Source: Oligoflexales bacterium (GTDB lineage Bacteria; Bdellovibrionota_B; Oligoflexia; Oligoflexales; JAPPIL01). Taken from it: a stretch of 64,000 nucleotides of DNA. Positions 26,463 to 52,529 of this stretch are shown here, piece after piece; position 1 is the first letter of the stretch, and every line of letters starts with the position of its first letter. The DNA is taken from positions 480,001 through 544,000 of the forward strand of contig OZ244057.1 of the NCBI GenBank assembly GCA_965215515.1, given 5' to 3'. The notes under the pieces were generated by a model. The model was not told the DNA's origin, searched no databases, and saw only the letters and a list, made by a program, of their open reading frames with translations. The translations under genes were made by a program, and so were the position numbers.

Positions 26463-29400
26463 ATGAAGGGTAAAGGGAAGAAAATCGCACATTTGCTCGC
26501 GGTAGTGTCTCTGCTGGCCAGTCCTGCGGCAGGGGATGATGAGCCGTCTGCCGCGAGTTCGCTTTTGGTGGAGGTCATTGCTGACGGCGATGCACTCAGG
26601 GGTGAGTTACTTACCAGCTTGCGTGGTCTGCAATATCCGCAGACGATCAACACCGCGGCCCTCGCCCCCGATACGGAACTGCTCGTGAGCATGACGGAAC
26701 GTGTGCTGCGCTGGAAGACGGCCCTCGAAGAGGCACTGCGTAACGCCTACGACACGGATAGCCGCGCTGCGGAACGCCCTGCCTATCTCGTCAATCTCTA
26801 CTTCGGCGTGTTGGCGAGCCTGATGCAGATGCGGCAGGTCGTTGTGCAGCATGTCGATTGGCGCACTATAGGCGAGCAGTTTACTCTGACTGTGCCGCTG
26901 GCATTGGTCTGGTCGCACAACCAAAGCCTGTCCCGCTTGTATGCTCAGCAGGTGCGAGTCGAGCAAGCGCTGGAAGAGGGGCAGGCACGCTTGCGCTTGC
27001 AGTCTGCTTTCGTCGATGGCTTGCAAATTGCCACACTCGCCTTGCGACCGAGCCGTACTAATCATCTCGCGGCGGTCAAATATCTTACCTATACCACGCT
27101 TTACAAGCAGTGGGTGCAGAACGAACACTATCGCGGGGCAGAAAAGACCACCCCACTACCGCCACTGCCGACACAGAGCGATGCTGGCTACGATCTCGGT
27201 TTGCGGGAAAGCATCATCGCCGAGCAGCGCGGGGCACATACTAGGCGGTTTCTGTTCGCCGCTTTGCTGGAAGCCCTACCGCGTCTGCAAGTGCCCGACA
27301 CGGGACTACAACGGCCGCTGCTGGCCAATTGGCCTCTCTACGAACAGCTGCAAGCGGCACATCCCGACATGACCGTCTTTACCACGCCTTCGTTGGCTCA
27401 GCAGGTGTATATCTTGCTGAACGACGAGCAGCGTGCCGCGCTGGCGGTCAACGACCGCGAGGAGATGCATCGCTTCATGCTGTTGGCGGAGCAGCTGTAT
27501 CTGCCGCTGGTACTGGAAAAGGATCTCCCCCGCGTTACCCTGCCTCTCGACGGTAGTGCTAACGCGGCACAGTTCTTGCGACAATTGCTGGTACGAGCAC
27601 GTTTCAGTGCCTTGCTCAATGCTCTGTCGCCGCTGCGTATTGCACGTGCCCAGGTCAAAACGCTGTTTGCCAGTCTGCAGGAACGGCAGACGACCATGCT
27701 TGCAGGCGGCGACAACCAAGAGGTCACCCGCTGGTACGAAACAGCTCACAAACGTATCCCTGAGATAAAGCGGCGCGCTCGCCTGGCATTGTTGCGGGAA
27801 GTGCTGTATGCGGCATGGAAGGTCGATACCGCCGAACGCAATGATGACGAACCGCTCAATGTGCAAATTCTGCGCCGTGCGTTGTTGCGCAGTATGTATG
27901 TCACCGACTTCAGCGGTGAATTTCAGCAATCGCTCGCGGCGATCTTGCAAACCAGAACCTACCCACAGGGCCGCGAGGTGTTTTTTAGCGAGCTTGCCCG
28001 TCATCTGCAACGTCTCACCCCCCAGTTCTCTCCCAGTGCTCAGGTTTTACGTCTCACCAGCCAAGACGACATCGTGCGCACTTACGTCAACCCTGCCCTC
28101 GCAGGAGCGGAGCTAGCAAGCGGCAAACAAGCCTGGCGAAGCGAAGCGGAGCGAGAGGGGGGAGCCGCCGCGCAGGCGGTGCAGCGCAAGACACTGCTTC
28201 ACCACATCACGCAGATCAAAGCACTGCTGCAGTACGGTTATTGGTTCGGCTATTTTTCTTCTCAAAATAACCCAAGACCGAGTATCGATGACTTACCTTT
28301 GAGTGCACGGCAGCGGGCTGATTACTGGAAGGAACTGCGTTTTGCTCACTTCGATCGCTATCCGTTCTTGCTCTTGTCCGTCGCGGCGAGTGAGGACAGG
28401 CGACCGTCGGCGACGGCAGTAAGCGCTGAAGCCTACGTCGAGAAAAAACAGTCGTTGTATAAAGTGCTTGCAGCCAAGCTGCGGGAGCGTGATCTGAGCC
28501 GTGTCGGCGATGAGGAAATCGCTAACTTCTGGCCGCTGATCGCCGAGGTGTTGGACAGTCAGCGGCAACGCATCGTCGTGGCATTACAAAAAATCGCGCG
28601 CGCCGATACGCTGCAAGACATCAAGCATCTCGCCGCCAATTCGCCTGTGGTGGCGATCGGGATGAAAGAGTTTGCCGCGCTTTATCCCTGGTATGAAAAT
28701 TTTGTGCACCGTTATCACCAACCTTCCAAGCTACAGCACAGTTGGGAACGTATCGATGTTACCTACGTCGGCAATTTTTTCACGGTCATTATCGGCTGGC
28801 ATCTCGGTGGTTGGTTGCTGCGCAAGTCCGTGCCGACCAGTTACTTGCTGCGCTATCTAACGCCAACCTTCGGGGCGATTTTGCCATATACCAATGCGTT
28901 GATGATGGCGTTTTGGTATGTGATTTTGGTCGATTATTTCGGGATCAAAGTTTGGCAAACTTTTGTCAGCAAACCGCGCAAGCTGGGTGAATTGCGGCAA
29001 TACTACTATCTCGGCGACCAAAAGGCGCAGTTTGTCAACCACACGTATCTCGATTATCTTGACATGGAAAAGACTTCACACATCTTCAATTATGGTCTTG
29101 AGGCGGCGATGCTCGGTCTTTTTGTCGGTTGGGCGGCTTACAGTCATCTCTTGCCTCACCTCGTGCCCAAGATAAAAGACGCTCGTCTACAACGTTTGTT
29201 TTCCCGCGTCGGTTTCAGAGACAAGAATGGTAAACCGCTCAGCGAGACAGAGGTGTCCTTTAACCGCGAAAACATCAAGGAGAGCGTGAGAGCGGAAATT
29301 GCTAATGTCGATGAAGCATGGCGGAAGGGGCAAATTTCAAAAAGATACGCCCAACAAGAAAAACATCAGATAGAGTTGGCACGTGATAAAATTTTCGCGT

Positions 29401-30194
29401 CGATGGCTAAAAAAGAGCGTGCTATCCGCGTCGCTGAGATTGAGCATACGCACGACTTTCGTGCCCTTGGCTTGCCAGACCCCGTCTTCAGTGCTGAGGA
29501 AATCAGTGCAGCACACGGAAAATTGGTAGGTTCTCTGCATGGCAAAAAAGATCTGTTATCCAATTTTGCCTGGCGAGATGCCAACACTGCTCTCATCAGC
29601 ATCCAAACATCGTTGCAGCGCCGCCTGAAGTTTCAGATCACCCGCCCTCGTGCCGCTGTCCACGCGGAGATCCGTCGTTTGAGTAAGGAGCATGCAGACG
29701 AGTTGCGGCTGTTTAGCATCGCCCCCAACAAAAGAAATACCTTCAGCCAGCGCACACTGAACGAAGTAGACAAGCACATCAACCAGCGTTTCACCCCCGC
29801 GCAACAGGTGGAAAGCAATCTAGAATTCCGTCGTTTCGATGAGGCGAGAAATGCCATCATCCGTGCTCTAGAGGAGTTGCACGCGTTTAGGATCGCCGAC
29901 GGTTGGCACAGTGCCATGTTTGAAGCGATTATCGAGCAGCGCTTCGGGAAAGTGGTGGGGGATAAAAGGCTGAAGGTGGAAGACGCTTTGCGAGGCTTGG
30001 GTATCGATATCGAAAAAACAGAGCTTGAGAGGCTGACGAAGGGGGAACGAGACGAAACGATCAAAAAAGCCTACAGAAAATTAGCGGTTAAATATCATCC
30101 CGATAAAAATCCGGGCGATAAAGAAGCGGAAGAAAAATTTAAAAAAATCACTGGACATTATAAATTTTTGAAAGAACATTATCAAATAAAATGA
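26463..30194 (+). CDS. Large exported/membrane protein with C-terminal DnaJ (J) domain
   Basis: Signal peptide [24 protein letters not shown]; about 3 hydrophobic segments around residues 770-900; C-terminal [28 protein letters not shown] with HPD at 30096-30104. Confidence 0.85.
28104..28155 (+). repeat. Single copy of the 39-bp element found at 2265-2417, inserted in frame
   Basis: GGAGCGGAGC-TAGCAAGCGGCAAACAAGCCTGGCGAAGCGAAGCGGAGC-GAG; 36/39 match to the reverse complement of unit A; encodes [18 protein letters not shown]. Confidence 0.9.
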
Positions 30195-32848
30195 TGTGTA
30201 AAGAGGTGGTAAGTAGAATTTGCGTTATTTTTTTGTTGTTATTGTTGGACTCGCCTGCCAGCGCGCAGGGCGATAGCGTCGTCTACCATCGCGATGCGAC
30301 ACGCGGCAAGGCATTGATCGATACCTACCTCGGCGCTTTTGCCGCGGGCGATGAGACGCGGGTGTATTGGCAGCGGCAACAGATTATCACTTACATGTTT
30401 GCCGCTTATGACCAGCATGTTTACACTACAACACTGCATTATCTGCACGGTTTTGAGCACACGCATCCCGATGCTGTGCTGGCTTTGAGCGATAGTTTGC
30501 AAGCGTATTGGGATAGCAATTATTTGCAGAGTTATCTCGTCGGCAGTGCGGCTGAATACGGTAAGTTGAAATTTCTCGCGACGCTTGGCATGGTTGGGGG
30601 TGGACTGGGATTGGTAAAAAATCCGCTTGCCTCGTTTGCCGCCTTGAAAGGTTTGAATTTCTTATTGCCGTTAGCGGGGGGTGTGGGCGCTTATTATGCG
30701 GTGGAATTTTTTCGCCAGCCTCTGCCCGATGTGCCACCTGAACCACAGCAGGTGCTGAGGTTCGCCAGGGGGGCGCGTTATTTTTCTTACGCGCAGCAGC
30801 GCAATGACTATCTCTATCGCCTGTTCGGTGTCGGGGTTGGGTTGGGTGCGGGGGAGTTTATTTTCCAAGCTCTCGGCGGTAATTTTTTGCGTCTGACTAA
30901 GCCTTCCAAAGGAGGGCTTGTCGCCCCTCTCGACAAGGAGGTGCGCCCGCCTAACCCGCCTAAGAAGTCATCGCTATTTAGGCCGCAGGCTAGCCGTACC
31001 TACTTCGCTCGTGCCGCGGGGGCGATATTGGGTATCTATCTGTTGTCTGAAGGCACGCATCGCTTGTTGCGTACCGTGGAACTACGTCGGACGGAAGACG
31101 AGTTGCAACGGGCGCGCCAAGATTTCCACGCGGCGTGCCACCGTGGTGACTCTCGGGAGCTGTTGGCAACCGCTAAGCGACTTGCTGAGACGACGGTACA
31201 GTTGGTAACACTCTATGAGATGCCACAGTTGCGGGCGATGGTTGAGTTTGAGCAGAAGTTTTCACAGCAGGCAGGGCAGCTAAGCAAAGCTACCGATGAG
31301 GAACTGCGCAGCAGTTTGCAGGACATGACGCTGAAATTGTCCAAGTCTCTGCAAGCTAAACTGACGCGGGCGATGGTGCGCAAAAACTATCACTACAACC
31401 GCGTGCCGCTGTTGCATGCGTTGAGCAAGGCGAGCTATACGCAACTCAGCCAGCATAATCGCGACTCTCGTGTGACCGAGCTGTTACAGGAGTTTGAGCA
31501 AGAGCATGCTGAAGAACTGCTGCGCCACAGCTTGGAGGCACAAGGAAGTGAGGCGGATCTTGACGAAAGGTTTCGTGCGTGGGTGGAGTTATCGCTGCGC
31601 GATCGTTATGCGCTGGCACAGCAGACGTTGGGGCAGGGTAAATTACAGCGCAACATCGAGTTGTTGTTTCAGGTGGCCGCGTTGTTCAAAGCTAGTGCAG
31701 ATGAGTACGATGTTGTTTTTTTGCCACACTTTTATCGGCAGTTGTTGGCGAAGTTTCAGAACATGCTGTTGATGTATCGTAATTTTGCGGCGATCATCGA
31801 TCACAACGCGGTTTGGCAGATGAAATTTTCTGCCGCTGAGCTAAATGCAGTGGTCGATCTTTATCTCGATTATGTTCAGGCTGACCGTGTGGCGGCGGTG
31901 TCTGCGCCACGCCCACACCAAGGTCAGGGACGCGAGGTGTTAACTTCGACGCGTGGTTTTGCTCGCTTTCTGGCGGAGTACATAGCTGCTCTACCGACCA
32001 AGTCTTACAACGAACTGCTGTTGCGTGTGCTCACTATCTATCGTGAACAGCCTGCGCAGCGTGCTGCGTTGACTGTCCTGCTGGAGGACGTGGCAGAGAA
32101 AGCCGAGTTGCACGACAGTTATTACGACTCGGTGGTGCTTGCGACGCTGGAGGGCAGTTTTATCGGGGCGGGGTTGCTGATGGTGACGCGTATGGGGGCA
32201 AAGTTAATGCATCTGCTCGGTGCAGATGTCAGCAAACCGCGTTTTCGCTGGATTGCTGCATTGCTGGGGACAGGTGGGGCGATAGACACCGCAGAGGGTA
32301 TACGCCTTTCGACCAGACAGCATTGGACACAACTCGGCAAGGTGGCGTTGGTGGGTGCTGCGGCGGGTTATGCTTATTATTTTGCGCAAAAGCTACGCAC
32401 GCACAAACTGCCCCCCGAGGCTGTGTTGTTCGAGGTGCAGAAGGAGATTACACTCGACCTCGCCTATCGTGCCTGCGTTTTGGCGCACGAGGTCGACGAT
32501 AGGGTTAGGGATAAGGACGAGCTACAGACCTACAGTGCCGAGCAGATACAGCAGGAACGTGAGGCGTTATCGGCTTTGGCCGCGCGGGTGAAGAAGATCG
32601 GCCAGCAGGCTCAGCACCTGAGCGAGAGTGCTCCGAGCTTGCGTGGCAACCATCGGGTATCTTTACCGCACGCTTATCGGAACACTGACAATGGCCAGTG
32701 TTCCCCCCAGGTAGCGACTGAGGGGCAAACTGTCGTCAGTATTACACCGCTGGTACAGGACATTGCCCACATCGCTGAGCAACTACAAGCGTGGAAGCGG
32801 GCGATGGATGTTATTGAATATCGCCGTTTAACGCAACGAGGTAGCTGA
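30191..32848 (+). CDS. Large exported helical protein with Gly-rich hydrophobic hairpins
   Basis: Overlaps the previous stop (ATGA); signal peptide ..[17 protein letters not shown]; hydrophobic segments [60 protein letters not shown]. Confidence 0.8.
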
Positions 32849-32964
32849 GAATACGATGTTGGTGATTACCATAAAAATAGTTGTTGACAGCATATGTCGG
32901 TGGTGATAGCGACCATGGATCGGTGTTGTGTGACATTTAATCTATGATTTTTATAGGAGTGGTG

Positions 32965-34884
32965 ATGAGGTTTTTAGCGGTCGTGTTGGGATGCGCACTG
33001 TGGCATGGCGATGTGGTGCGCGCCAAGGGGCGGGGAGCGACGGGTTTAGCTCGGCGTGTTATCGGCATCGACTTGGGTACAACCAATTCGGCCATGGCCT
33101 GGGTGGACAAGAATGGTGCGCTGACTATCATTCGCAACCTTGAAGGTAGTAACATAACACCGAGTGTGGTTGACCTCGCTGAGGGAGGGGGTGTCGGTGA
33201 GTCTGCGTTAGAGTCGTTGGGGTTCTCGCCAGGGAGCGTAATTTTCTCGGTCAAGCGCCTTATGGGGCTTAGCTACGCTGAGTTGCAGGAGAGCAACCTC
33301 GCTGGAAACCTTCCCTACCAGGTCGCAGCGGGTGAAGGTGGAGTGGCCATCATAGAGGTTGACGGCCAGCAGTATTTGCCGCAGGAGGTTGCGGCGCGGG
33401 TCTTAGCGAAGCTCAAAGCAGATGCCGAAAGCGTGCTCGGCGAGGATATAAGTGAGGTGGTGATTACCGTCCCAGCTCGTTTTGATAATCGCCAAAAGCT
33501 TGCCACCAAGGAGGCGGGCGAGATCGCAGGCTTGCGTGTGCTCAGGCTGGTGGCCGAACCGACCGCCGCTGCTCTGGCGCACGGTCTCGGCAAGGGCGGG
33601 GAGAACCTTGTCGTTGTCTTCGATTTGGGAGGCGGCACGTTTGATGTCTCCGTTCTCGACATGGGGTATGCGGGTGAGGGAGAGGAGATGAGCGAAGTAC
33701 TCACCACCGAAGGTAACCCATTGCTGGGTGGCGATGACTTCGACAACAGGATTGTGCAACATCTGCTCGCTAAGTTGGAAAATAAACACGGGGTGGATGC
33801 AGTAGCCGAGTTGCGCAGTGACCAAGAGGCGATGGCTGAGTTAAAAATGGCGGCAGTCAAGGCAAAAGAGGCACTTACGGGCGGCAGAAGAGCGAATATC
33901 AGGATTAGAAATTTGGGGGAACAGTCGCTTACTGTCAGCGAGACTCTTACCCGTGTGGAGTTCGAAGGATTAATCGGTGATCTCGTTGCACAGACTATTG
34001 CCATGACCGAGAAGGCCTTGGCTAATGTCGAGATGGTTGCCGCGGATATCGACAAGGTGCTGATGGTCGGTGGTTCGACTCGTGTGCCCGCGGTCAGCGA
34101 GGCGGTGGAAGCACTGTTTGGCGTTGACAAGATAATCCGTGAGGACAATCCCGATGAAGTTGTGGCACTGGGTGCTGCGGCACTAGGGGGCGTGTTGGAG
34201 GGAAGTATCGAGGGTGTAACGCTGCTTGACACCACTTCCATGGATCTTGGTATCGGAGTGTTGGGAGGTAGATTCGAGGCAATCGTTGCGAAGGATACCA
34301 CCATCCCCACCGAAGCCCAGAAAACCTTTACTACCGCGAAAAATAACCAAACGTCGGTGACAATCCCTGTCTATCAGGGCGATGCCGAGCTGGTTGAGCA
34401 CAACGAGAAGATCGGTGAGTTTACTCTTGAGGGTATTCCACCTGCACCGCGTGGGATTCCGCAATTAGATGTGATCTTTGAAATAGATGCCAACAGTCTG
34501 CTTAAGGTCACCGCTAGGGATAAGGGCACAGGGAAGGAGAAGGAGATTACCGTAGCCGCCAATGCTATCGGTGAGGAGAGGATCGCGCAGATGCGCAAGA
34601 ATCTGGAAGAAAACAGCGAGAGGATCGAGGCTAAATTGAAATTGCTGGACGCCAGGGACAAGCTCAACAGCCTTTTGGCGCAGGCGGAAGGGGTGTTGAA
34701 TCAGGGAGGCACCGCAGCCAAATTACCGTTAGAGGCGAAGAACTCTTTAGAGCAGGCTATCGCCGCGGCCGAAAGCGCTGTCAACAGTAAGGATGTCGCG
34801 GCTATCGAGAAAGTCATCGCGGGTTTTGAGGCGCAGATCCACGCCGTGACTACTGAGCTCTACAGCCAGGGGGAACAGGGGTAG
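32965..34884 (+). CDS. dnaK: Hsp70/DnaK paralogue with N-terminal signal-peptide-like extension
   Basis: GIDLGTTNS, TPSVV, VITVPA, EPTAAAL, DLGGGTFDVS, LGGDDFD, VGGSTRVP, NPDEVVALGAA, PPAPRGIPQ; AGGAG RBS before ATG 32965; TTGACA at 32884. Confidence 0.92.
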   Translation: MRFLAVVLGCALWHGDVVRAKGRGATGLARRVIGIDLGTTNSAMAWVDKNGALTIIRNLEGSNITPSVVDLAEGGGVGESALESLGFSPGSVIFSVKRLMGLSYAELQESNLAGNLPYQVAAGEGGVAIIEVDGQQYLPQEVAARVLAKLKADAESVLGEDISEVVITVPARFDNRQKLATKEAGEIAGLRVLRLVAEPTAAALAHGLGKGGENLVVVFDLGGGTFDVSVLDMGYAGEGEEMSEVLTTEGNPLLGGDDFDNRIVQHLLAKLENKHGVDAVAELRSDQEAMAELKMAAVKAKEALTGGRRANIRIRNLGEQSLTVSETLTRVEFEGLIGDLVAQTIAMTEKALANVEMVAADIDKVLMVGGSTRVPAVSEAVEALFGVDKIIREDNPDEVVALGAAALGGVLEGSIEGVTLLDTTSMDLGIGVLGGRFEAIVAKDTTIPTEAQKTFTTAKNNQTSVTIPVYQGDAELVEHNEKIGEFTLEGIPPAPRGIPQLDVIFEIDANSLLKVTARDKGTGKEKEITVAANAIGEERIAQMRKNLEENSERIEAKLKLLDARDKLNSLLAQAEGVLNQGGTAAKLPLEAKNSLEQAIAAAESAVNSKDVAAIEKVIAGFEAQIHAVTTELYSQGEQG

Positions 34885-41736: not shown

Positions 41737-42366
41737 ATGAGTGACTTTAACTGGTATGTTTATCAATCGGGACAACAGATGGGGCCCTTCTCTGATGCGC
41801 AAGTGCGGCAACTGCTCGCTATTAAGATGGTAGCGCAGGATGCCTTTATTTTCAAGAATGGCTGGGACGATTGGCGGAGCATTAACGATGTCTTTGGCAA
41901 TGACGGCGGCGATGTCAGTTCCCCTCCCCCCGCGCCAGCTGCTTCCCAGCCGAGCGGTGGTGTAAGCAAGCACAAAGCGGAGTCAGATAGCGGTGCTGCG
42001 CCTAACGATCCGTCCGCACGACAGCAGATGCGCATGGCACGGGTAGGCATCAAGGGGCGAGTAATTGCTCACAATGATGGGCGGGTCGTTATTTCGGGTG
42101 GTATTAACATCTCAGCTTCGGGAATTTTTGTCGAAACCGAAGTTGAGAACACAGCTCCAGGGTTTCAGGTAGGAGAGCAGATTAAGTTGACGATTAAAGC
42201 AGATGACTTGAGTTATCCCTTTAATGTGGTCGCTGAAATGATGCGCTTTAACTCCGACAGCAGCAACCATCCTACTGGTTACGGGATGAAATTTGTAGAC
42301 CTACCCGTGGAGATTAAATCTGATATAGAGAGGCTGGCGGCAGCAGGAGAACGAAAGGCAGTTTGA
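41737..42366 (+). CDS. GYF_2 (DUF4339) plus PilZ domain protein
   Basis: WYV..GQQMGPFS..FKNGWDDW; RMARV and NISASGIFV..GYGMKF. Confidence 0.88.
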   Translation: MSDFNWYVYQSGQQMGPFSDAQVRQLLAIKMVAQDAFIFKNGWDDWRSINDVFGNDGGDVSSPPPAPAASQPSGGVSKHKAESDSGAAPNDPSARQQMRMARVGIKGRVIAHNDGRVVISGGINISASGIFVETEVENTAPGFQVGEQIKLTIKADDLSYPFNVVAEMMRFNSDSSNHPTGYGMKFVDLPVEIKSDIERLAAAGERKAV

Positions 42367-43629: not shown

Positions 43630-45243
43630 TTGTTGTTAGGAAATGAGGTGGTGTGCGTGCTGTTGGCATTAAGGTGTTTTTGTCTATTTTTGTATCTGTT
43701 AACAGTCAGTTACTCCTGTATAATGAGACCCTCTGCCTCGTGGCCCGAAGCGCCGAACACCCGCGAAGCTCGCGAACAGGAGGCTTTTTTTAACAGCCAC
43801 TGGTGGGATGATGCTTATGTTATGAAATTCAGTGACCTGCCCTCTCGCGGTAAGGCACGCAGACAACCTTACTCAGGGTACTGGTATCCATACAATAAGG
43901 GCGGCACGGCAACGGTACTTGCTCACGGCGGGGAAACGGCTTTGCGGAAGTATGACCGAGCCTTCGGCACGAAGGCGCTAAGCTGGGAGCAAAGATACCA
44001 CAGCGACGCTAATGCACCCCGATGGACGGGACACTGCCACGGCTTTGCCGCTGCGTCACAACTTCTCCCAGCACCGCTCACTAAGGTAACGAAAGGTGGG
44101 GTAACCTTTACCCCTGCTGAGATCAAAACCTTGCTGGCAGAGCTGCATGCACACGCGGAGATGCACATGCTTGGCGGGCGGCGGTGTAACAATGTCAACA
44201 TGCAGAATGCCATCCGTGGGGTAGGTAGCACATTATGTCCTCCGGGTTTTATAAGCACTATGACGGCGAACCGCAGTCTCGTCTGCATCCCCGCGAAAGA
44301 CCTTTCTACACAGGAGTTGAACAGCTGCGAAGATGTCAACGCGGGCACGTTTCATCTTGCCCTAGCCAATTGGGTGGGTAGACGCGAGCAGATTATTTTG
44401 TTTGATGAGGAATCTGGCCAACAGGTTTGGAACTATCCGTTATTCGAGTATACCGTGGGGGACAAGTCTGGGTATATCAGCAAAGAAAACGCACTGCGTC
44501 TCGTATCTCAATACCATAGACCTGCTCAGCCGCGGGGCTACTACCCATTCAACAGAAAGGCAACTTCTTTTTATTATACCGAGATGCATGTTTCCTATGC
44601 CAAATCCGTTGACGAAACCGATGCGGGAGAACTACATGTAGGAGGCAAAGTTTATACCTATATCTTGGAAATAGACAACTTCGGTGACATCGTGGGTGGC
44701 GAATGGGTGGGAAATAGCTATCGTGATCACCCTGATTTTTTGTGGATTGCCCTTGAGCCACGACAGTCACTTACCGAGGATGAGGCAAGACAGAGGCTTC
44801 TTCCCCACGCTTTCCAGATTTATCGCAACACGGTAAGAACACGTTCTAATCCCTACCTTCAGGTTGACACCGTGCTGGATCTCTGGGCAGCATCGATTGG
44901 AGAGGAGCCAGGGTACAGGCTCGACCCGATCGAGTTACCTGACCATAGTGCTGCTTGGGGACGAGGCAAAGGGCAGCGTTTTAGTGTTTTGTTGGATGGC
45001 GACATCAATGGCAGTGTTTTTTTGGGTAAAGAGATCGCTCTTACCGTTACTTTGATGGATGCACAGGATCGCGATAGTGTGCAGGTAAGTGTTAATAACA
45101 GCACTATCGAACCTGACAGCCGTAGCAACTTAGTGCTTAATTTTGTGGTGTCCCCTCGCCCTGGCCTCAATATTCTGCGTATTGCTTTTGATGATACTGG
45201 TAGCTCTGGAGAGGAAAAATTTATTTTCCACGCCGTGTTGTAG
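43630..45243 (+). CDS. Transglutaminase-elicitor-family secreted protein
   Basis: PYSGYWYP, KYDRAF, WTGHCHGFAAAS (catalytic Cys), DVNAGTFH, QVWNYP, GGEW..HPDFLW; start uncertain. Confidence 0.8.
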   Translation: MLLGNEVVCVLLALRCFCLFLYLLTVSYSCIMRPSASWPEAPNTREAREQEAFFNSHWWDDAYVMKFSDLPSRGKARRQPYSGYWYPYNKGGTATVLAHGGETALRKYDRAFGTKALSWEQRYHSDANAPRWTGHCHGFAAASQLLPAPLTKVTKGGVTFTPAEIKTLLAELHAHAEMHMLGGRRCNNVNMQNAIRGVGSTLCPPGFISTMTANRSLVCIPAKDLSTQELNSCEDVNAGTFHLALANWVGRREQIILFDEESGQQVWNYPLFEYTVGDKSGYISKENALRLVSQYHRPAQPRGYYPFNRKATSFYYTEMHVSYAKSVDETDAGELHVGGKVYTYILEIDNFGDIVGGEWVGNSYRDHPDFLWIALEPRQSLTEDEARQRLLPHAFQIYRNTVRTRSNPYLQVDTVLDLWAASIGEEPGYRLDPIELPDHSAAWGRGKGQRFSVLLDGDINGSVFLGKEIALTVTLMDAQDRDSVQVSVNNSTIEPDSRSNLVLNFVVSPRPGLNILRIAFDDTGSSGEEKFIFHAVL

Positions 45244-45374: not shown

Positions 45375-47111
45375 ATGGCGCGAGCGGGACGTTGTGATAA
45401 ACGAAATATAGCATCGGCTGTGATAGAAAAGAGTTTGGCAAAAAAATTAGCAGAAAACGGTCTTTCTGAGCAAGATTTGGTGGCCGCGCACGCACGCATC
45501 AAGGAGCAGGGTGTCTCGTTGATGTACGCCCTGGAGCATACGGGTAAAATTGACGAGCAGCGTTTATTGTCTATCATGTCTGAATATTACCGAACACCCA
45601 AAGTAGATCTGAGTAAAATGAATCTGCAATCTGCTGTGATTAGCCTCATTCCCGCATCGTTAGCAGAGGGTTTTCGGATCATCCCTATCGATCGATTAGG
45701 CAACAGCATTATGATTGCAACAGGAAATCCTAGGAACTTATCGGTCACTGAAAAAGTGCGTTTTGCAACGGGCTATTTTGCACAACTTGTACTCGCTTCG
45801 GAAAGTGCTCTGTCAACAGCACTGCAAAAATACTACCCCTCTAAAAAAGCTTTGGCATCCGAAAAAAAAAGCAAAGTAGCAAGTAAAAATGTGTTATTGA
45901 AAGATAGAATTATCATTCAAACACGAGGAGCGAGCTACGATAGCAAAGTAGTAGAATTAGCTGATAGTGTGCTAACAAAATGTTTTCAACTGGGAGCATC
46001 TGATATTCACGTTGAACCATACGCAGACCACACACGTATCAGACTGAGAATAGATGGTACGCTTACAGAAGCCGCACGAGTTGAATCCGATCAGCAAAGT
46101 GCTCTGATCGCACGCTATAAAGTAATGAGCAGCATGGATATTTCCGAAACAAGATTGCCACAGGATAGTAGCCTCACAGTTGCAATTGATAACGTGCCAC
46201 TCGATTTTCGCGTCAGCACCATGCCCACAATATATGGGGAAAAAATCGTCATGCGTCTTTTGGATCAGTCAGGATTAAAAGTGGATATGGGTGATCTGGG
46301 CTTTGAAAAAAAAGAATTGGATATATTCCATTCTGCCATTCATAGACCCTGGGGTATTGTACTAGTAACAGGGCCGACTGGTTCAGGCAAGACAACAACA
46401 CTGTATTCTGCTCTATCTGAGCTTAACAATGTCGAAGTAAACATCCTTACTGCTGAAGATCCAGTTGAATACAATATCGAAGGGATCAACCAGGTGGAAA
46501 TTAAAACCAAAATTGATTTTAATTTTGCCAAAATTTTGCGATCTTTTTTGCGCCAAGATCCTGATGTGATTATGGTAGGTGAGATAAGGGATGTAGAAAC
46601 TGCTTCTATTGCTGTCAACGCTGCCCTAACAGGGCACTTGGTAATGTCAACCTTGCACACCAATAATTCGTACGAAACCATAACCCGTTTGCTCAACATG
46701 GGAGTTAGGCCTCATGAACTTGTAGGTGCACTGCTATGCATTGTTGCACAACGCTTGATGCGTAAACTTTGTCAAGAATGCAAGATTGTCGATGAAAACG
46801 CTACTCCTGCCTATCTTGTCAGCCTAGGTATTCGCAAAGAGTATGCTCACAAAATTAAAGTTTATAAAGGAAAGGGATGTATCTTTTGTAAAAATATGGG
46901 GTTCAAAGGACGTGTTGCCATTCATGAGGTTTTACGCATGACTTCAAAGCTCCACGACGCTATCGTGCAAAACGCATCCGCAGCAGAACTGAAACAAGTT
47001 GGTATCAGCACTGGCATGCGTACCCTGCGACAAGCAGCCCTGATAAAGATGGCAAACGGCATTGTCTCCGCCGCAGAAGTAGTAAAAGTTACCATTTCAG
47101 ATACCGATTAG
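45375..47111 (+). CDS. pilB: Type IV pilus assembly ATPase PilB
   Basis: ASDIHVEP, GPTGSGKTTTLY, AEDPVE, LRQDPDVIMVGEIRD, TGHLVMSTLHTN, CQEC..CIFC; start may be GTG 45420. Confidence 0.93.
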   Translation: MARAGRCDKRNIASAVIEKSLAKKLAENGLSEQDLVAAHARIKEQGVSLMYALEHTGKIDEQRLLSIMSEYYRTPKVDLSKMNLQSAVISLIPASLAEGFRIIPIDRLGNSIMIATGNPRNLSVTEKVRFATGYFAQLVLASESALSTALQKYYPSKKALASEKKSKVASKNVLLKDRIIIQTRGASYDSKVVELADSVLTKCFQLGASDIHVEPYADHTRIRLRIDGTLTEAARVESDQQSALIARYKVMSSMDISETRLPQDSSLTVAIDNVPLDFRVSTMPTIYGEKIVMRLLDQSGLKVDMGDLGFEKKELDIFHSAIHRPWGIVLVTGPTGSGKTTTLYSALSELNNVEVNILTAEDPVEYNIEGINQVEIKTKIDFNFAKILRSFLRQDPDVIMVGEIRDVETASIAVNAALTGHLVMSTLHTNNSYETITRLLNMGVRPHELVGALLCIVAQRLMRKLCQECKIVDENATPAYLVSLGIRKEYAHKIKVYKGKGCIFCKNMGFKGRVAIHEVLRMTSKLHDAIVQNASAAELKQVGISTGMRTLRQAALIKMANGIVSAAEVVKVTISDTD

Positions 47112-47120
47112 AGGAAAGCC

Positions 47121-48215
47121 ATGAACTACACCCTAACTCAACTTTTAGAAACTCTTGTACTACAAAAGGGCAGCGACTTACATTTATCTGTTGCTTCACC
47201 GCCGCGCTTTAGAATCGACGGCAAACTGCATCCAATCAACGTCGATAACTTAACCTCACAAGACGTAGGCGAGTTATGTTACAGTGTGTTAACCGAAGAA
47301 CAGAAAAAAAATCTCGAAGTCGATAATGAGATAGACTTTTCTTTCTCAGTTGAAGGCATAGGACGTTTTCGTGCCAACGTTTTTTTACAAAAAGAAACCA
47401 TTGCAGGTGTTTTTCGTGCCGTTCCTCTGGCTATCAAATCGCTGGAAGAACTTGGTTTACCCCCCGTATTCAGAGCATTGGCAAGCACTCCACGCGGTTT
47501 AGTGTTAGTGACAGGGCCAACAGGGTCAGGGAAATCAACTACACTGGCAGCAATGGTCGACTTCATCAATAGAGACCGTCGCGATCATATTATGACTATC
47601 GAAGATCCAATTGAATTTTTACATTCTTCCAAAAAATGTCTAGTTAATCAACGTGAGGTAGGCAAAGATACTAAATCATTTCAACGCGCTTTGAAAAGCG
47701 TTCTTCGCCAAGATCCTGACGTTGTGCTGATCGGAGAGTTGCGCGATCTAGAGTCAACCATGCAAGCTGTAACTGTCGCTGAAACAGGACACCTTGTCCT
47801 CGGCACGTTGCACACTAACTCTGCTGTCACCTCCCTCAATCGTCTCATCGATATTTTTCCTTCTGAACAACAACCGATGATAAGAACACAACTAGCACTT
47901 AATCTCAGTGCTGTCGTCTCACAGCTGTTAATCCCCTCCATCAAAGGAGGAAGAGCACTAGCACTGGAGATTATGATTCCTAACATCGCTATCCGTAGCT
48001 TGATTCGTGAAAACAAAATTCACCAGTTATACTCTGCCATACAAATCGGGCAAGAACAAACAAGAATGCAGACGATGAACCAATCACTGTTAGCATTATG
48101 GGAAAGTAACATTATCTCTTATGAAGAAGCCTTGAGCAAAAGTTCTAGCCCAGATGAATTATTGGGCATGATGGAAGAATCTCCTCAGTGGCAAGCTAAA
48201 AACACAAAGGGGTAG
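47121..48215 (+). CDS. pilT: Type IV pilus retraction ATPase PilT
   Basis: SDLHL, GPTGSGKSTTLA, IEDPIE, LRQDPD, AETGHL, AIRSLIRE. Confidence 0.95.
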   Translation: MNYTLTQLLETLVLQKGSDLHLSVASPPRFRIDGKLHPINVDNLTSQDVGELCYSVLTEEQKKNLEVDNEIDFSFSVEGIGRFRANVFLQKETIAGVFRAVPLAIKSLEELGLPPVFRALASTPRGLVLVTGPTGSGKSTTLAAMVDFINRDRRDHIMTIEDPIEFLHSSKKCLVNQREVGKDTKSFQRALKSVLRQDPDVVLIGELRDLESTMQAVTVAETGHLVLGTLHTNSAVTSLNRLIDIFPSEQQPMIRTQLALNLSAVVSQLLIPSIKGGRALALEIMIPNIAIRSLIRENKIHQLYSAIQIGQEQTRMQTMNQSLLALWESNIISYEEALSKSSSPDELLGMMEESPQWQAKNTKG

Positions 48216-48222
48216 TTAATAA

Positions 48223-49491
48223 GTGGTCGCCTATAGTTACAAAGCACGTGATCGTAACGGACATCTGCGTTATGGAGAAATTGAAGCTGACTCGAAAAAT
48301 TTCGTCAGAGTACAGCTACGCCGTATGCGCCTAGTCCCCCTCTCTATAAAAGCAGAACAAATTTCCGCACGATCGAATACACCCCGCCTCTCACTGGAAT
48401 TCTTCTATTACAAAGACAAAAATGGACAACTACAGCTTCGTTTGGGCTACGAATGGCCAAAAACGCGCGAGCTCGCCATCTTCTCCCGTCAATTTTCTTC
48501 CATGTTGTCAAGTGGCGTAGCAATGATGAAATGCTTGGAAATATTACGCGAGCAACAAAAGCTACGCGAATTCGGCATAGCAATCGAAACCATTCGTCGC
48601 GAAGTGGAGAGCGGCAAATCTCTCGGAGAAAGCTTAGAACTATATCCAAACGTCTTCAAGCCACTCTACGTTGCCATGGTTAAAATCGGCGAAACCAGCG
48701 GCAGCCTCGATGCAATTATGCGTAAACTCAGTGAATATCTTGATAAAATTTCCAAAATTATTAGCCAGATAAAATCGGCCCTGTACTACCCTGTAATCGT
48801 AGTGATTATGTCCATCTCCATCATTGTCGGTATGCTGGTTTATGTCGTACCAGTGTTTGCCAAACAATTTCAAAGTGCGGGACACGAGCTACCCGCTCTG
48901 ACACGCTGGGTAATCTCGTTTTCCGACTTTCTCCGCGACTACTATGTTATATTTGTCCCCATCCTAGTAGGTATTGCCATCGGCATCAGGATGCTATTAA
49001 AGACAGAACAAGGGAAGAGATTTTATGATAAGTATATGATGAAAATGCCCGCAATTGGCAAACTTATTCATAAAACGGTGGTTGCCAGGTTCTGCTACAC
49101 CCTCTCGGCCACGCTGTCTGGTGGTGTTAATATGCTCGATTCTTTGCTGATCTGTGCCGCGTCCGCAGATAACAAGATCGTCGAAGAAAATATCGTGGCA
49201 GTAAAAAACAAAGTGGAAGTGGGCGCAACTCTGTCAGACTCAATGCGGGAAACAATCATCTTCCCCAGTATGGTTACCTCTATGATCGAAGTCGGCGAAC
49301 AAACAGGCGCATTGGACGCGATGTTAGCCAAAATTGCCGAAATTTTCGAAGAAGAAGTCGAAGAACAAGTTAAAGCACTGTTGTCGTTGATCGAACCGCT
49401 AACCATCGTCGTCATCGGTGTCTGCATCGGCTTCATCGTTACCGCCATGTACCTACCCATCTTCGACATGGCAAAAACTGTCGGCGGATAG
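48223..49491 (+). CDS. pilC: Type IV pilus platform protein PilC (GspF family)
   Basis: FSRQFSSML, GETSGSL, ALYYP, GEQTGALD, LIEP..AMYLPIF. Confidence 0.93.
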   Translation: MVAYSYKARDRNGHLRYGEIEADSKNFVRVQLRRMRLVPLSIKAEQISARSNTPRLSLEFFYYKDKNGQLQLRLGYEWPKTRELAIFSRQFSSMLSSGVAMMKCLEILREQQKLREFGIAIETIRREVESGKSLGESLELYPNVFKPLYVAMVKIGETSGSLDAIMRKLSEYLDKISKIISQIKSALYYPVIVVIMSISIIVGMLVYVVPVFAKQFQSAGHELPALTRWVISFSDFLRDYYVIFVPILVGIAIGIRMLLKTEQGKRFYDKYMMKMPAIGKLIHKTVVARFCYTLSATLSGGVNMLDSLLICAASADNKIVEENIVAVKNKVEVGATLSDSMRETIIFPSMVTSMIEVGEQTGALDAMLAKIAEIFEEEVEEQVKALLSLIEPLTIVVIGVCIGFIVTAMYLPIFDMAKTVGG

Positions 49492-49599: not shown

Positions 49600-51732
49600 A
49601 TGGACAATAAAATCGCCATTATCGGCATGGCAGGCGTGTTCCCGCGCGCCGCCGACCTCGACGCTTATTGGCATAACATCACCCACAAAGTCGATGCCAT
49701 CACCCCCTTGCCTCCGACACACTGGCGCTCAGAAGACTACTACTCCGCCGATCCGACCCGAGCAGACCACGTCTACATCACCAAAGGTGGTTTTCTCCCC
49801 ACCCTGCCCTTCGATCTGCGAGAATTTGGGATCGCACCACGCACCATCACCGCTATCGACACCGCACAACTGCTAGGTTTGCTGGTGGCAAAGAATGCTC
49901 TGCACGATGCGGGCTACGGCGCGGAACGCACTTTCGATCGTGCCCGTACCAACGTTATCTTCGGCGCGACGGGAGCACAAGAACTGGTCATCCCTCTCGC
50001 TGCCCGTCTCGGCCACCCGCACTGGCGACGCGCGCTGCACAAAGCAGGTATTGCCGACGCTCAGGCAGAAGCTATCGTTAACGACATTGCCAACTCCTAC
50101 GTCAGCTGGCAGGAAGCCTCGTTCCCAGGCCTGCTCGGTAACGTTATCGCAGGCCGCGTCGCCAACCGCTTCGATCTGCGCGGCAGCAACTGTGCGGTCG
50201 ATGCCGCTTGTGCCAGCTCGCTCGCGGCCCTGAGACTCGCTTGCCTCGAATTGCACAGCCACAGCTGCGATCTTGCCCTCTGCGGAGGAGTCGATACCTT
50301 CAACGACATCTTCATGTACATGTGCTTCGCCCGCACCCACGCGCTCGCCCCCGACGGCAAAGCAAAAGCCTACGACCGTCATGCCGACGGTACAACCATC
50401 GGCGAGGGGGCGGGAGCGCTGCTCCTCAAACGCTACGACGATGCCCTAGCCGCGGAAGACCACATCTACGCCATCATCAGAAATATCGGTAGTGCCAGCG
50501 ACGGACGCGGCCCCGCCATCTACGAGCCGAGTCGCGACGGGCAGGTAGCCGCCCTGCGTAACGCTTGCCACGGCATCGACCCTGCTTCCATCACGCTCCT
50601 CGAAGGACATGGCACAGGCACACGCGTCGGCGACCACATCGAACTGCAAGCACTGCACGAAGTTTTTCGTCGCCCCACAGCACAAAAAAAATACTGTGCC
50701 CTCGGTTCAGTCAAATCACAGATCGGCCACACCAAAGCCGCAGCAGGGATGGCAGGCATTATCAAAGCCGCTCTTGCCCTGCACCACCGCGTGTTGCCAC
50801 CCACCATCAATTGCGACGACCCTCACCCCCTGTTAGCCGACGGCGACTCACCCTTCTACCTCAACACCACCAGCCGTGCTTGGGAAGCTGACCCGCAACA
50901 CCCCCGTCGTGCAGGAGTGAGCTCGTTCGGTTTCGGCGGCAGCAACTTTCACTGTCTGCTCGAAGAAAACCCCACCCCCAACCCACGTCCACCCCGTACC
51001 GCACCGCCAAACACGAACAGAGAAAACTTTGTCATCACCATCAACGGAGCGAACCTTAAAGACGTTGACTTGTTGTCCGCAACTGCGGATAATGGCGGCC
51101 GCGTGAATTACGAGCACGGTCGCAGCATGTCAGATACACAACCGACAAACGACACGGCGAGCAGCGCAGACAACAAGCCAGATGCCGTCACCCAAGCGGC
51201 AATCGCCGCCGTGCAGCACATACAGACACGCGCTGCCGACCTGCATGCTAAGTTTCTCGATATCCAGAATACCTCGCTGCAAACGCTGAACGACATCGTC
51301 AACCAGCGTCGCGCCACTCCCGACAGCATACCTGACCACCTCAGCCTCCCCAGTGAAGTCACACCCCCACCCACCCACCCACCCGCACCTACAGCTGTCA
51401 CCGCTGACCCTGCACCTGTCGTTCCTGCGACAACATCCAGTGCCGACCCCCAACTCAACGGCCGAGCCACCCCCACCGCTAACGGGCACGACAATGATCT
51501 GCATACCTCGCTACTCGCGGTCGTGGCACAAAAAACAGGCTACCCCGAAGACATGCTGACGTTGGACATGAAAATCGAAGAAGACCTCGGTATCGATTCC
51601 ATCAAACGAGTCGAGATCCTCTCCGCCTTGAAGGACAAACACCCACAACTCGAAGCCGCCGATGAACAACTTATCACCGCCACCTCATTGCATGATATTC
51701 TTGACTTCTGCCAAACTGAAAAAAAAAAGTAG
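49600..51732 (+). CDS. PfaA/Pfa2-like PKS subunit: KS plus a single ACP, no AT or KR
   Basis: DAACASSL, EGHGTGT, IGHTKAAAG, SSFGFGGSNFH; ACP LGIDSIKRVEIL. Confidence 0.9.
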   Translation: MDNKIAIIGMAGVFPRAADLDAYWHNITHKVDAITPLPPTHWRSEDYYSADPTRADHVYITKGGFLPTLPFDLREFGIAPRTITAIDTAQLLGLLVAKNALHDAGYGAERTFDRARTNVIFGATGAQELVIPLAARLGHPHWRRALHKAGIADAQAEAIVNDIANSYVSWQEASFPGLLGNVIAGRVANRFDLRGSNCAVDAACASSLAALRLACLELHSHSCDLALCGGVDTFNDIFMYMCFARTHALAPDGKAKAYDRHADGTTIGEGAGALLLKRYDDALAAEDHIYAIIRNIGSASDGRGPAIYEPSRDGQVAALRNACHGIDPASITLLEGHGTGTRVGDHIELQALHEVFRRPTAQKKYCALGSVKSQIGHTKAAAGMAGIIKAALALHHRVLPPTINCDDPHPLLADGDSPFYLNTTSRAWEADPQHPRRAGVSSFGFGGSNFHCLLEENPTPNPRPPRTAPPNTNRENFVITINGANLKDVDLLSATADNGGRVNYEHGRSMSDTQPTNDTASSADNKPDAVTQAAIAAVQHIQTRAADLHAKFLDIQNTSLQTLNDIVNQRRATPDSIPDHLSLPSEVTPPPTHPPAPTAVTADPAPVVPATTSSADPQLNGRATPTANGHDNDLHTSLLAVVAQKTGYPEDMLTLDMKIEEDLGIDSIKRVEILSALKDKHPQLEAADEQLITATSLHDILDFCQTEKKK

Positions 51733-51749
51733 CACCAGCCGCCTCGCCC

Positions 51750-52529
51750 GTGTTCAACCTTGACACTACCACCTTCCCTGCACTGCAAGACCACATGCTC
51801 GACGCACGCATCGTCGTGCCCGCCGCCCTCGCTTTGACGCGCTTGCGCAGCTACGCCGAAAGCGTTACCGCCTGTGCCCAACGACATCTAACAGCCTTTC
51901 AGGTGTTGCACGGTGTGACCTTCCCCTCCACCGCGACGGTGCAACTAACCCTGCGCAGCCAACAAAGCACCCCTGACACCTGCCGCGTCGGTCTGTACCA
52001 CAACCAGCGTGCCTGCTACCGCGCCCTGGCCATGCACAACACCACCCCGCCGTTACCGAGTAGTCGCTTGCCGCCGCAGTTACACCTGCACGATAGCGAC
52101 CTCAGCACCGTCTACCGCGAAATTTTATTTCACGGCCCGCGCTGGCAGCTGCTCACCGCCATCTCCGCACCGCATGCGCAGACGAGCAGTGCTGCATTCG
52201 TTATTCCCGCCACGCTGGAACGTGAAACCGCCATGATCGATGCCGCTCTGCAGTTAGCCATCGTCCACATTCACCGTCGCTACCGAAAAACCTTCAGTTT
52301 GCCCGCAGCCATCGGCAGTTACCGTCTCTTCAACCCCGCACCGCCATCCCAGGGCACTCTTACCGTGCGTGTCACCGCACGCCACAACGCCCACGTGCTG
52401 CTCGATGCCGATATTACCCACCATACCCGCTTGCTTGCCCGTCTCGATGCCATCGAGATGATTCAAGGACGACGGCGGGGTGTGTCACCTACTGTGCAGG
52501 AACAATGCGCCACCACCACACCCAAGTAG
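51750..52529 (+). CDS. PKS-type dehydratase domain, probably fused to the upstream ORF by a -1 shift
   Basis: LQDHMLDARIVVP (HxxxxxxxxP), LFHGP, DAALQL; no RBS; frame open back to the A10 run. Confidence 0.8.
   Translation: MFNLDTTTFPALQDHMLDARIVVPAALALTRLRSYAESVTACAQRHLTAFQVLHGVTFPSTATVQLTLRSQQSTPDTCRVGLYHNQRACYRALAMHNTTPPLPSSRLPPQLHLHDSDLSTVYREILFHGPRWQLLTAISAPHAQTSSAAFVIPATLERETAMIDAALQLAIVHIHRRYRKTFSLPAAIGSYRLFNPAPPSQGTLTVRVTARHNAHVLLDADITHHTRLLARLDAIEMIQGRRRGVSPTVQEQCATTTPK

Follow-up and report, generated by a model that had tools for sequence, protein, structure and literature searches.

A leader-bearing DnaK paralog encoded with a giant membrane J-protein and a multi-hairpin partner in Oligoflexales: a candidate membrane-tethered Hsp70/J motor

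To our knowledge, bacterial Hsp70s fall into three types (DnaK, HscA and HscC), all of them soluble and cytoplasmic. The stretch of DNA analysed here, 64,000 nucleotides (nt) from an Oligoflexales bacterium (contig OZ244057.1, positions 480,001 to 544,000; the window), encodes a DnaK-type Hsp70 that opens with a hydrophobic leader (gene 3), preceded by a giant membrane J-protein (gene 1) and a multi-hairpin partner (gene 2). The genome of the window is called G000 and its relatives G001, G002 and G003; primes (gene 1', gene 2', Hsp70') mark a second, paralogous trio. The nearest bacterial precedent appears to be HscC with DjlB and DjlC. The available excerpt of PMC8215388 describes HscC as a specialised second Hsp70 beside the membrane-anchored DjlB and DjlC, thought to act on membrane proteins at the cytoplasmic face. 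The likeness lies in a second Hsp70 encoded next to membrane J-proteins and, as we read the trio, in the cytoplasmic side of action. However, HscC is a separate and shorter type of Hsp70 (550-580 amino acids, aa, according to the same excerpt), whereas gene 3 is of DnaK type, has 639 aa and a hydrophobic leader, and has no HscC model among its NCBIfam matches; gene 2 has no counterpart in the HscC system. Duplicated DnaKs occur in Myxococcus, in which MxDnaK2, like gene 3 a second DnaK-type paralog, is biased to membrane proteins (PMC11019930, in excerpt), but that paper mentions no leader, anchor, linked giant J-protein or partner. DjlA, which works with DnaK, is a membrane-anchored protein with a C-terminal cytoplasmic J-domain, as predicted for gene 1, but it is small and uses the housekeeping DnaK. 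In the TIM23-PAM (Pam18/Tim14 with mtHsp70) and Sec63-BiP systems, a membrane J-protein positions Hsp70 at a membrane complex, and in our preferred reading Hsp70 would lie on the matrix-equivalent side, as it does with Pam18. However, homology to these systems is limited to the J-domain and Hsp70. A bacterial Hsp70 carrying a signal peptide or a membrane anchor did not turn up in our search of the literature. What is new here is a DnaK duplicate with a conserved hydrophobic leader (in the paralog, what looks like a full signal-peptide-plus-helix anchor), encoded together with two large proteins that fall outside all known families and are predicted to face the periplasm.

With moderate confidence, we read the trio as a membrane-tethered Hsp70/J motor working on the cytoplasmic face of a new inner-membrane envelope complex made by genes 1 and 2. 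The initial annotation of the window had recognised a dedicated, linked module of Hsp70, membrane J-protein and membrane partner, laid out as in Pam18-mtHsp70 or Sec63-BiP, and that description is retained; its further proposal, that Hsp70 is exported or the trio delivered into a prey or host cell, is unsupported for reasons given below. The three genes are co-oriented, and genes 1 and 2 overlap by the four letters ATGA (30191-30194), as had been noted. Because this 4-nt overlap is kept in 6/6 loci examined, the linkage is beyond chance, and the trio is a module under conservation, as opposed to an accidental cluster. The linkage extends to gene 3 in relatives: G001 and G002 carry the trio in the same order as the window. 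The genes that flank it differ between genomes where these were compared, and the gene upstream of the trio is not common to G000 and G002. The module has a narrow distribution. A gene 2 query finds matches in 4 of 41 relatives, all from one family (f1, 3/3), and a profile search finds them in 4 of 131 genomes of the phylum, again in one family only. A set of 5.8 billion clustered proteins contains 26 relatives of gene 2 and 14 of gene 1, all of them without a name. Relatives with names are uncultured 'Oligoflexales bacterium' metagenome-assembled genomes (MAGs) of small size (1.9-3.1 Mb).

The larger relatives, G001 and G002, hold the second, paralogous trio besides the first. Gene 1' is 39% identical to gene 1 over ~1030 residues and has neither a J-domain nor an HPD motif; gene 2' is ~40-49% identical to gene 2, and Hsp70' is very divergent (272 bits). 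G003 has a gene 1'/gene 2' pair, directly 3' of which, where the others have Hsp70, lies an OmpA-family (peptidoglycan-binding) gene (L024:8437-8964); this hints at an envelope-anchored role of the pair. In G000 the second trio is reduced to a 379-aa fusion remnant outside the window (L025:6624-7763, - strand; G000:C1 ~834,623-835,762), composed of a gene 2'-like N-terminus, a piece of gene 2' hairpin block B and a fragment of Hsp70' (profile positions 164-332), followed by unrelated sequence. The remnant adjoins a gene for a Cas3-like helicase. Helicase and Cas3-like neighbours of the paralogous loci prompted an anti-phage reading, which was dropped for want of support; PADLOC assigned 0 families to the 6 proteins of both trios.

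Gene 1 opens with a signal peptide whose n-region has a median net charge of +2, and the 15 aa after the leader have a median of -2 (14 sequences). The large domain that follows is cysteine-free, mostly helical in the AlphaFold2 (AF2) model at a predicted local distance difference test score (pLDDT) of 60-80, and has no Pfam match. The AF2 model of residues 50-1243 (pLDDT 60.9) has no Foldseek match in the PDB at E<=1e-3, and the ESM Atlas gave no usable match for residues 25-1000. The membrane core is the most conserved part of the protein, with dense invariant columns at residues 770-902 that are common to the paralogs. Its hydrophobic helices, three of them within residues ~766-898, are followed further on by an intact HPD J-domain, which confirms the arrangement first proposed. 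The J-domain sits at the extreme C-terminus (PF00226, 59.8 bits against a cut-off of 27.8, E 2.8e-16; HPD at residues 1212-1214). Gene 1 is not a canonical DnaJ, as it matches those models in their J-domain part only (52.5 bits; cut-off 338), and it is not a DjlA equivalog (NCBIfam DjlA, 19.6 bits against 162). Compared with its orthologs over 29958-30194, gene 1 of the window is without ~100 residues before the J-domain and without a C-terminal tail motif, both common to orthologs and paralogs; it stops right after helix III of the J-domain, at the ATGA overlap.

Gene 2 belongs to no Pfam or NCBIfam family. Its Gly-rich hydrophobic hairpins, which had been seen at the outset, are borne out at residues 126-174, 210-230, 270-288 and 648-733. 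The AF2 model (pLDDT 66.2) has no Foldseek match in the PDB at E<=1e-3, and the ESM Atlas gave no usable match. A gene 2 profile run against 1.84 billion representatives collects 79 relatives, and the more remote of these form two sets, one aligning with positions ~30-225 and the other with ~580-860. Those of the half-length relatives that were inspected have a signal peptide of their own directly before the homologous domain and belong to no Pfam family. Because relatives of each half carry their own signal peptides, gene 2 appears to be a fusion of two exported modules, whose free-standing, signal-peptide-bearing relatives occur in other bacteria. One metagenome locus, recovered through a remote gene 2 relative, has no Hsp70 or J gene nearby (n=1). 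The membrane cores of genes 1 and 2 contain many invariant polar and aromatic residues, which are consistent with a working site and have no bearing on the role of the chaperone. Whichever side of the membrane Hsp70 occupies, genes 1 and 2 each found a protein family that is new.

The charge distribution around the hydrophobic segments suggests how the two proteins are placed. The signal peptide of gene 2 has an invariant A25 and a near-invariant Q26, after which 20 aa have a net charge of -5 to 0 in 12/12 sequences. Because the signal peptides of both proteins are canonical and the mature regions start out acidic, the large all-helical domains are expected on the periplasmic side, as is the C-terminal domain of gene 2 with its two invariant cysteines. 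In gene 1, the loop between helices 1 and 2 has a net charge of +3. Helix 3 is acidic on its N-terminal side and has a net charge of +3 to +4 on its C-terminal side (K+R 9-12); residues 899-940 have a median K+R of 10 and a median net charge of +4. Since the N-flank of helix 3 is acidic and the C-flank basic, the tail of gene 1 with the J-domain is probably cytoplasmic.

Gene 3 was initially described as a complete DnaK. The protein is indeed a full-length Hsp70 (PF00012, 544.1 bits, cut-off 20.6; residues 39-640 align with positions 1-598 of the 599 in the profile), but a divergent paralog, which falls below both NCBIfam DnaK equivalog cut-offs (PRK00290, 585.2 against 648; TIGR02350, 553.8 against 822.55). 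It is not HscA either: TIGR01991 scores 447.8 against a cut-off of 708.55, and gene 3 aligns without gaps over DnaK region 290-295, which is deleted in HscA (PMC8215388, in excerpt). The parts needed for an Hsp70 cycle are in place. K104, E205, D227, T232 and D234 of gene 3 are invariant in the 5 aligned Hsp70s, the divergent Hsp70' included, and align with K70, E171, D194, T199 and D201 of E. coli DnaK, all of them ATP-site residues; the inter-domain linker and the pocket residues also align with those of DnaK. Gene 3 is 41% identical to the housekeeping DnaK of G000. A quick tree of 27 rows unites the Hsp70s of the trios in a single clade (support 100), whose sister group is the DnaKs of the lineage itself (Shimodaira-Hasegawa-like approximate likelihood ratio test 93) on a long stem (1.59); the positions of Hsp70' and of the G003 copy in this tree are unsure, as their branches are long. 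The best solved relatives are bacterial DnaK of E. coli (441.8 bits), ahead of BiP (385.6 bits). Acquisition of a BiP or other eukaryotic-type Hsp70 by transfer is not supported, since gene 3 is nearer to DnaK and sister to the DnaKs of its own lineage; in this respect the trio differs from Sec63-BiP. Judged by these alignments, gene 3 is a working-looking ATPase that probably arose by duplication in this lineage.

All three genes begin with signal-peptide-like sequences of n-h-c form, as the initial annotation stated, but that of gene 3 is followed by an unusual flank. The Hsp70 leader consists of M-(K/R), an uncharged run of 13 aa in 6/7 orthologs (22 aa in the G003 copy) with an h-region of 11-13 aa, and a small-x-A (A-x-A-type) site in 7/7. 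A lipoprotein leader, suggested by L-G-C in the window, was rejected, as the orthologs have no cysteine there, and a Tat (twin-arginine translocation) signal was rejected because no twin arginine precedes the h-region. The 20 aa after the leader have a net charge of +3 to +5 in 7/7 orthologs, whereas among 52 exported control N-termini from the gene 2 superfamily the net charge is at least +3 in only 3 and the median is ~-1. Because the flank is basic in all orthologs and such flanks are rare in exported controls, the positive-inside rule would keep it in the cytoplasm. Hsp70' is built differently: in 2/2 genomes a signal peptide with an acidic start precedes a loop of 13 aa, which leads into a 19-aa hydrophobic helix with a basic flank. 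This order predicts a type I anchor, with the helix acting as stop-transfer segment and the ATPase in the cytoplasm. A 167-aa J-protein encoded elsewhere in G000 is built like Hsp70', with a signal peptide, a short ectodomain and one helix, after which come a highly basic segment and a J-domain with HPD. Its gene overlaps by 4 nt that of a 229-aa hydrophobic protein (L006:1180-1683 and 1680-2369, + strand; G000:C1 ~1,373,337-1,374,526, outside the window). The 229-aa protein was considered as a gene 2 relative and is unrelated (hhalign probability 1.3%); the pair may be a second, small membrane J module. In the first trio the J-domain is on gene 1 and Hsp70 has no helix, whereas in the second gene 1' is J-less and Hsp70' has the helix. 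This alternation, which is drawn from two trio types and fails in the incomplete G003, suggests two alternative ways to hold Hsp70 at the inner face of the same type of complex.

Taken as a tethered motor, the trio would work as follows. Genes 1 and 2, translationally coupled, would be inserted by the Sec pathway through cleavable signal peptides, so that most of both proteins forms novel all-helical domains in the periplasm while the conserved hydrophobic helices and hairpins anchor them in the inner membrane. Gene 1 would re-enter the cytoplasm after its third helix with a tail of ~340 aa that ends in the J-domain. Gene 3, apparently a copy of the lineage's DnaK that arose recently, evolves fast and has kept its ATPase site and substrate pocket intact, would be retained at the membrane by its short hydrophobic N-terminus and the basic juxtamembrane stretch. 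The J-domain would trigger ATP hydrolysis and make Hsp70 clamp whatever segment the complex exposes on its inner side, be it a tail or loop of the complex itself or a polypeptide in transit. The outcome would be ATP-driven pulling or remodelling across the membrane, in a layout like that of Pam18-mtHsp70. If so, bacteria have independently evolved the mitochondrial and endoplasmic reticulum type of arrangement, a membrane J-protein with a tethered Hsp70, and mechanical work by Hsp70 across the bacterial inner membrane becomes testable.

Several observations weigh against this account. The HPD motif is kept in 9/13 members of the gene 1 family and degenerate or lost in 4/13. Given these losses and the J-less gene 1', J-stimulated ATPase activity cannot be essential to every version of the system. 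Pam16 is a J-like protein, which the degenerate HPD copies in some gene 1 orthologs recall. In G003, the leader-bearing Hsp70 is encoded elsewhere, away from the gene 1'/gene 2' pair. For gene 1, the number and orientation of the helices are insecure, because the loop after helix 2 opens with basic residues (net +2 over 15 aa), which misfits a periplasmic location. The pLDDT of the AF2 models is <50 in the membrane regions of genes 1 and 2, too low to settle topology. Finally, in its anatomy the leader of Hsp70 is that of a Sec substrate with a cleavable signal peptide, the small-x-A site lying at the right distance in all orthologs, so that standard rules alone would call the protein exported, and its 13-aa uncharged run seems too short for a normal membrane span.

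This last point leads to the alternative of an extracytoplasmic Hsp70 machine, which we consider fairly unlikely. Here the leader would be cleaved, the J-domain would also lie outside, and the trio would act either within the periplasm or, once released, in a host or prey cell, in an arrangement like Sec63-BiP, with ATP drawn from host, prey, target, surroundings or leakage. Beyond the n-h-c anatomy itself, in which the 13-aa run recurs in 6/7 orthologs and the small-x-A site in all seven, even in the distant G003 copy, export would suit a trio in which every gene has a leader and relatives that are uncultured MAGs with small genomes. It would also suit G002, where a 486-aa protein encoded upstream of the trio (L020:1133-2593, + strand) reproduces the tail of gene 1, HPD J-domain included, as a separate protein (38% identity to the tail over 351 aa) and carries a leader closely like that of Hsp70; this copy fits either model of topology. 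However, the basic flank found in all seven Hsp70 orthologs and in few of the controls, the topologies of Hsp70' and the 167-aa J-protein, which put the chaperone modules inside, and the flanks of gene 1 helix 3, which do the same for its J-domain, all disfavour export or delivery, as does the invariant ATP site of the Hsp70s. The periplasm is held to lack an ATP supply. The only GrpE of G000 has no evident leader, and the markers FHIPEP, VirB4 and TssC, for type III, type IV and type VI secretion systems, respectively, were not found in this genome, a single contig that is 94% complete. A search for the ATP/ADP translocase PF03219 gave no match and is uninformative, as the control genomes were equally silent. 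Were the Hsp70 exported nevertheless, this would be the first bacterial extracytoplasmic Hsp70/J system and would overturn the rule that ATP-driven chaperones are absent from the envelope of bacteria.

Tethering bears on another explanation as well, in which Hsp70 and the J-domain merely keep the precursors of genes 1 and 2 competent for export and aid their insertion. Genes 1 and 2 would then be functional envelope proteins, related to the Hsp70 as client to chaperone, with no working motor. We hold this to be distinctly unlikely, since the J-domain, being C-terminal, is made last, when most of the precursor already needs chaperoning, and the predicted membrane tethering of Hsp70 and Hsp70' suggests action at the assembled complex. 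In its favour, the Hsp70 is tightly co-inherited with two Sec substrates of very large size, some lineages do without the J-domain, DnaK paralogs of Myxococcus are specialised for membrane proteins (PMC11019930, in excerpt) and Hsp70 guides membrane-destined or secreted proteins (PMC8215388, in excerpt). A third alternative is DjlA-like signalling, in which the periplasmic domains sense the state of the envelope and gate the recruitment by the J-domain of an Hsp70 (the paralog or the housekeeping DnaK), which then switches a cytoplasmic target. The order of parts, an exported domain, membrane helices and a cytoplasmic J-domain, agrees with this scheme, and the OmpA-family protein encoded after the G003 pair fits an envelope-linked role. 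However, no regulator or known signalling domain occurs in or beside the trio, gene 1 scores far below the DjlA cut-off given above and the J-less paralog retains the remaining architecture, so that signalling seems very unlikely. The tethered motor is the reading that we prefer over these.

The trio stands apart from the general heat-shock genes. The 2.18-Mb contig of G000 places the housekeeping DnaK (820.7 bits on PF00012) at genome position 951,740, the DnaJ, which is of class A, at 1,028,491 and the one GrpE at 1,735,652. The trio Hsp70 is therefore not the sole DnaK of the genome. No HrcA was found in G000 and no match to CIRCE (controlling inverted repeat of chaperone expression) in the window at up to 3 mismatches, so that the reported absence of grpE, canonical dnaJ, hrcA and CIRCE near the trio is borne out throughout. 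At the gene 3 start of 32965, to which a gap of 116 bp to gene 2 refers, GGAG lies 5 nt upstream. The spacer, 116 nt in the window, is longer in relatives. From this gap and its TTGACA, separate transcription of the dnaK gene had been proposed. The gap stands, and a block of TTGACA, 17 nt and TG-n-TAGC is conserved in the aligned spacers of 3 genomes, but its weak -10 element kept it from being called in a consensus promoter scan, and the same scan found no terminator in the spacer; read-through and an internal promoter are both possible. The coordinates of the features are collected in Table 1.

Table 1. Positions in the window of the trio genes, their predicted parts and the intergenic promoter-like block (ORF, open reading frame).
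Feature	Position	Strand	Remarks
Gene 1	26463..30194	+	1243-aa membrane J-protein; ORF 26445/26463-30194, opens TTG 26445, gene call starts ATG 26463
Gene 1 signal peptide	26463..26534	+	basic n-region, 12-aa h-region, P-A-A-G, then acidic residues
Gene 1 predicted exported (periplasmic) all-helical domain, ~740 aa	26535..28757	+	no known family or fold
Gene 1 membrane core	28758..29156	+	hydrophobic helices 766-786, 801-830, 876-898
Gene 1 helical tail, predicted cytoplasmic	29157..29957	+	basic juxtamembrane stretch, then charged helices
Gene 1 J-domain	29958..30191	+	PF00226; HPD at 30096-30104
Gene 2	30191..32848	+	885-aa partner, ATGA-coupled to gene 1; ORF 30191-32848
Gene 2 signal peptide	30191-30265	+	
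Gene 2 hairpin block A	30566-31054	+	
Gene 2 helical domain	31055-32131	+	
Gene 2 hairpin block B	32132-32389	+	
Gene 2 C-terminal domain, two invariant cysteines	32390-32845	+	
Promoter-like block in gene 2/gene 3 spacer	32873..32912	+	TTGACA 32884-32889, 17 nt, TG-n-TAGC
Gene 3	32965..34884	+	639-aa DnaK-type Hsp70 paralog; ORF 32944/32965-34884, gene call starts ATG 32965
Gene 3 hydrophobic leader	32965-33024	+	
Gene 3 basic stretch	33025-33057	+	
Gene 3 nucleotide-binding domain	33058-34209	+	
Gene 3 linker, substrate-binding domain, lid	34210-34881	+	

Other genes of the window lie downstream of the trio. A protein with GYF_2 and PilZ domains is encoded at 41737-42366, and one with a transglutaminase-elicitor domain (PF16683) at 43630-45243; the PF16683 family is named after an oomycete elicitor. 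At 45375-49491, ~10 kb downstream of the trio, are three consecutive genes of type IV pilus or type II secretion system (T2SS) type, which encode a T2SSE ATPase with an MshEN domain, a PilT-like ATPase and a T2SSF platform protein. The 8 kb downstream of the G002 trio contain no such neighbourhood. In the window, the three genes are followed at 49600-57073 by a cluster resembling polyketide or polyunsaturated-fatty-acid synthases, with a ketosynthase (KS) carrying an acyl carrier protein, a dehydratase protein and a 1522-aa KS-KS-FabA protein. The region from 50 to 62 kb has marked strand skews, with a GC skew of -0.23 at 50-54 kb and an AT skew of down to -0.34 at 56-60 kb.

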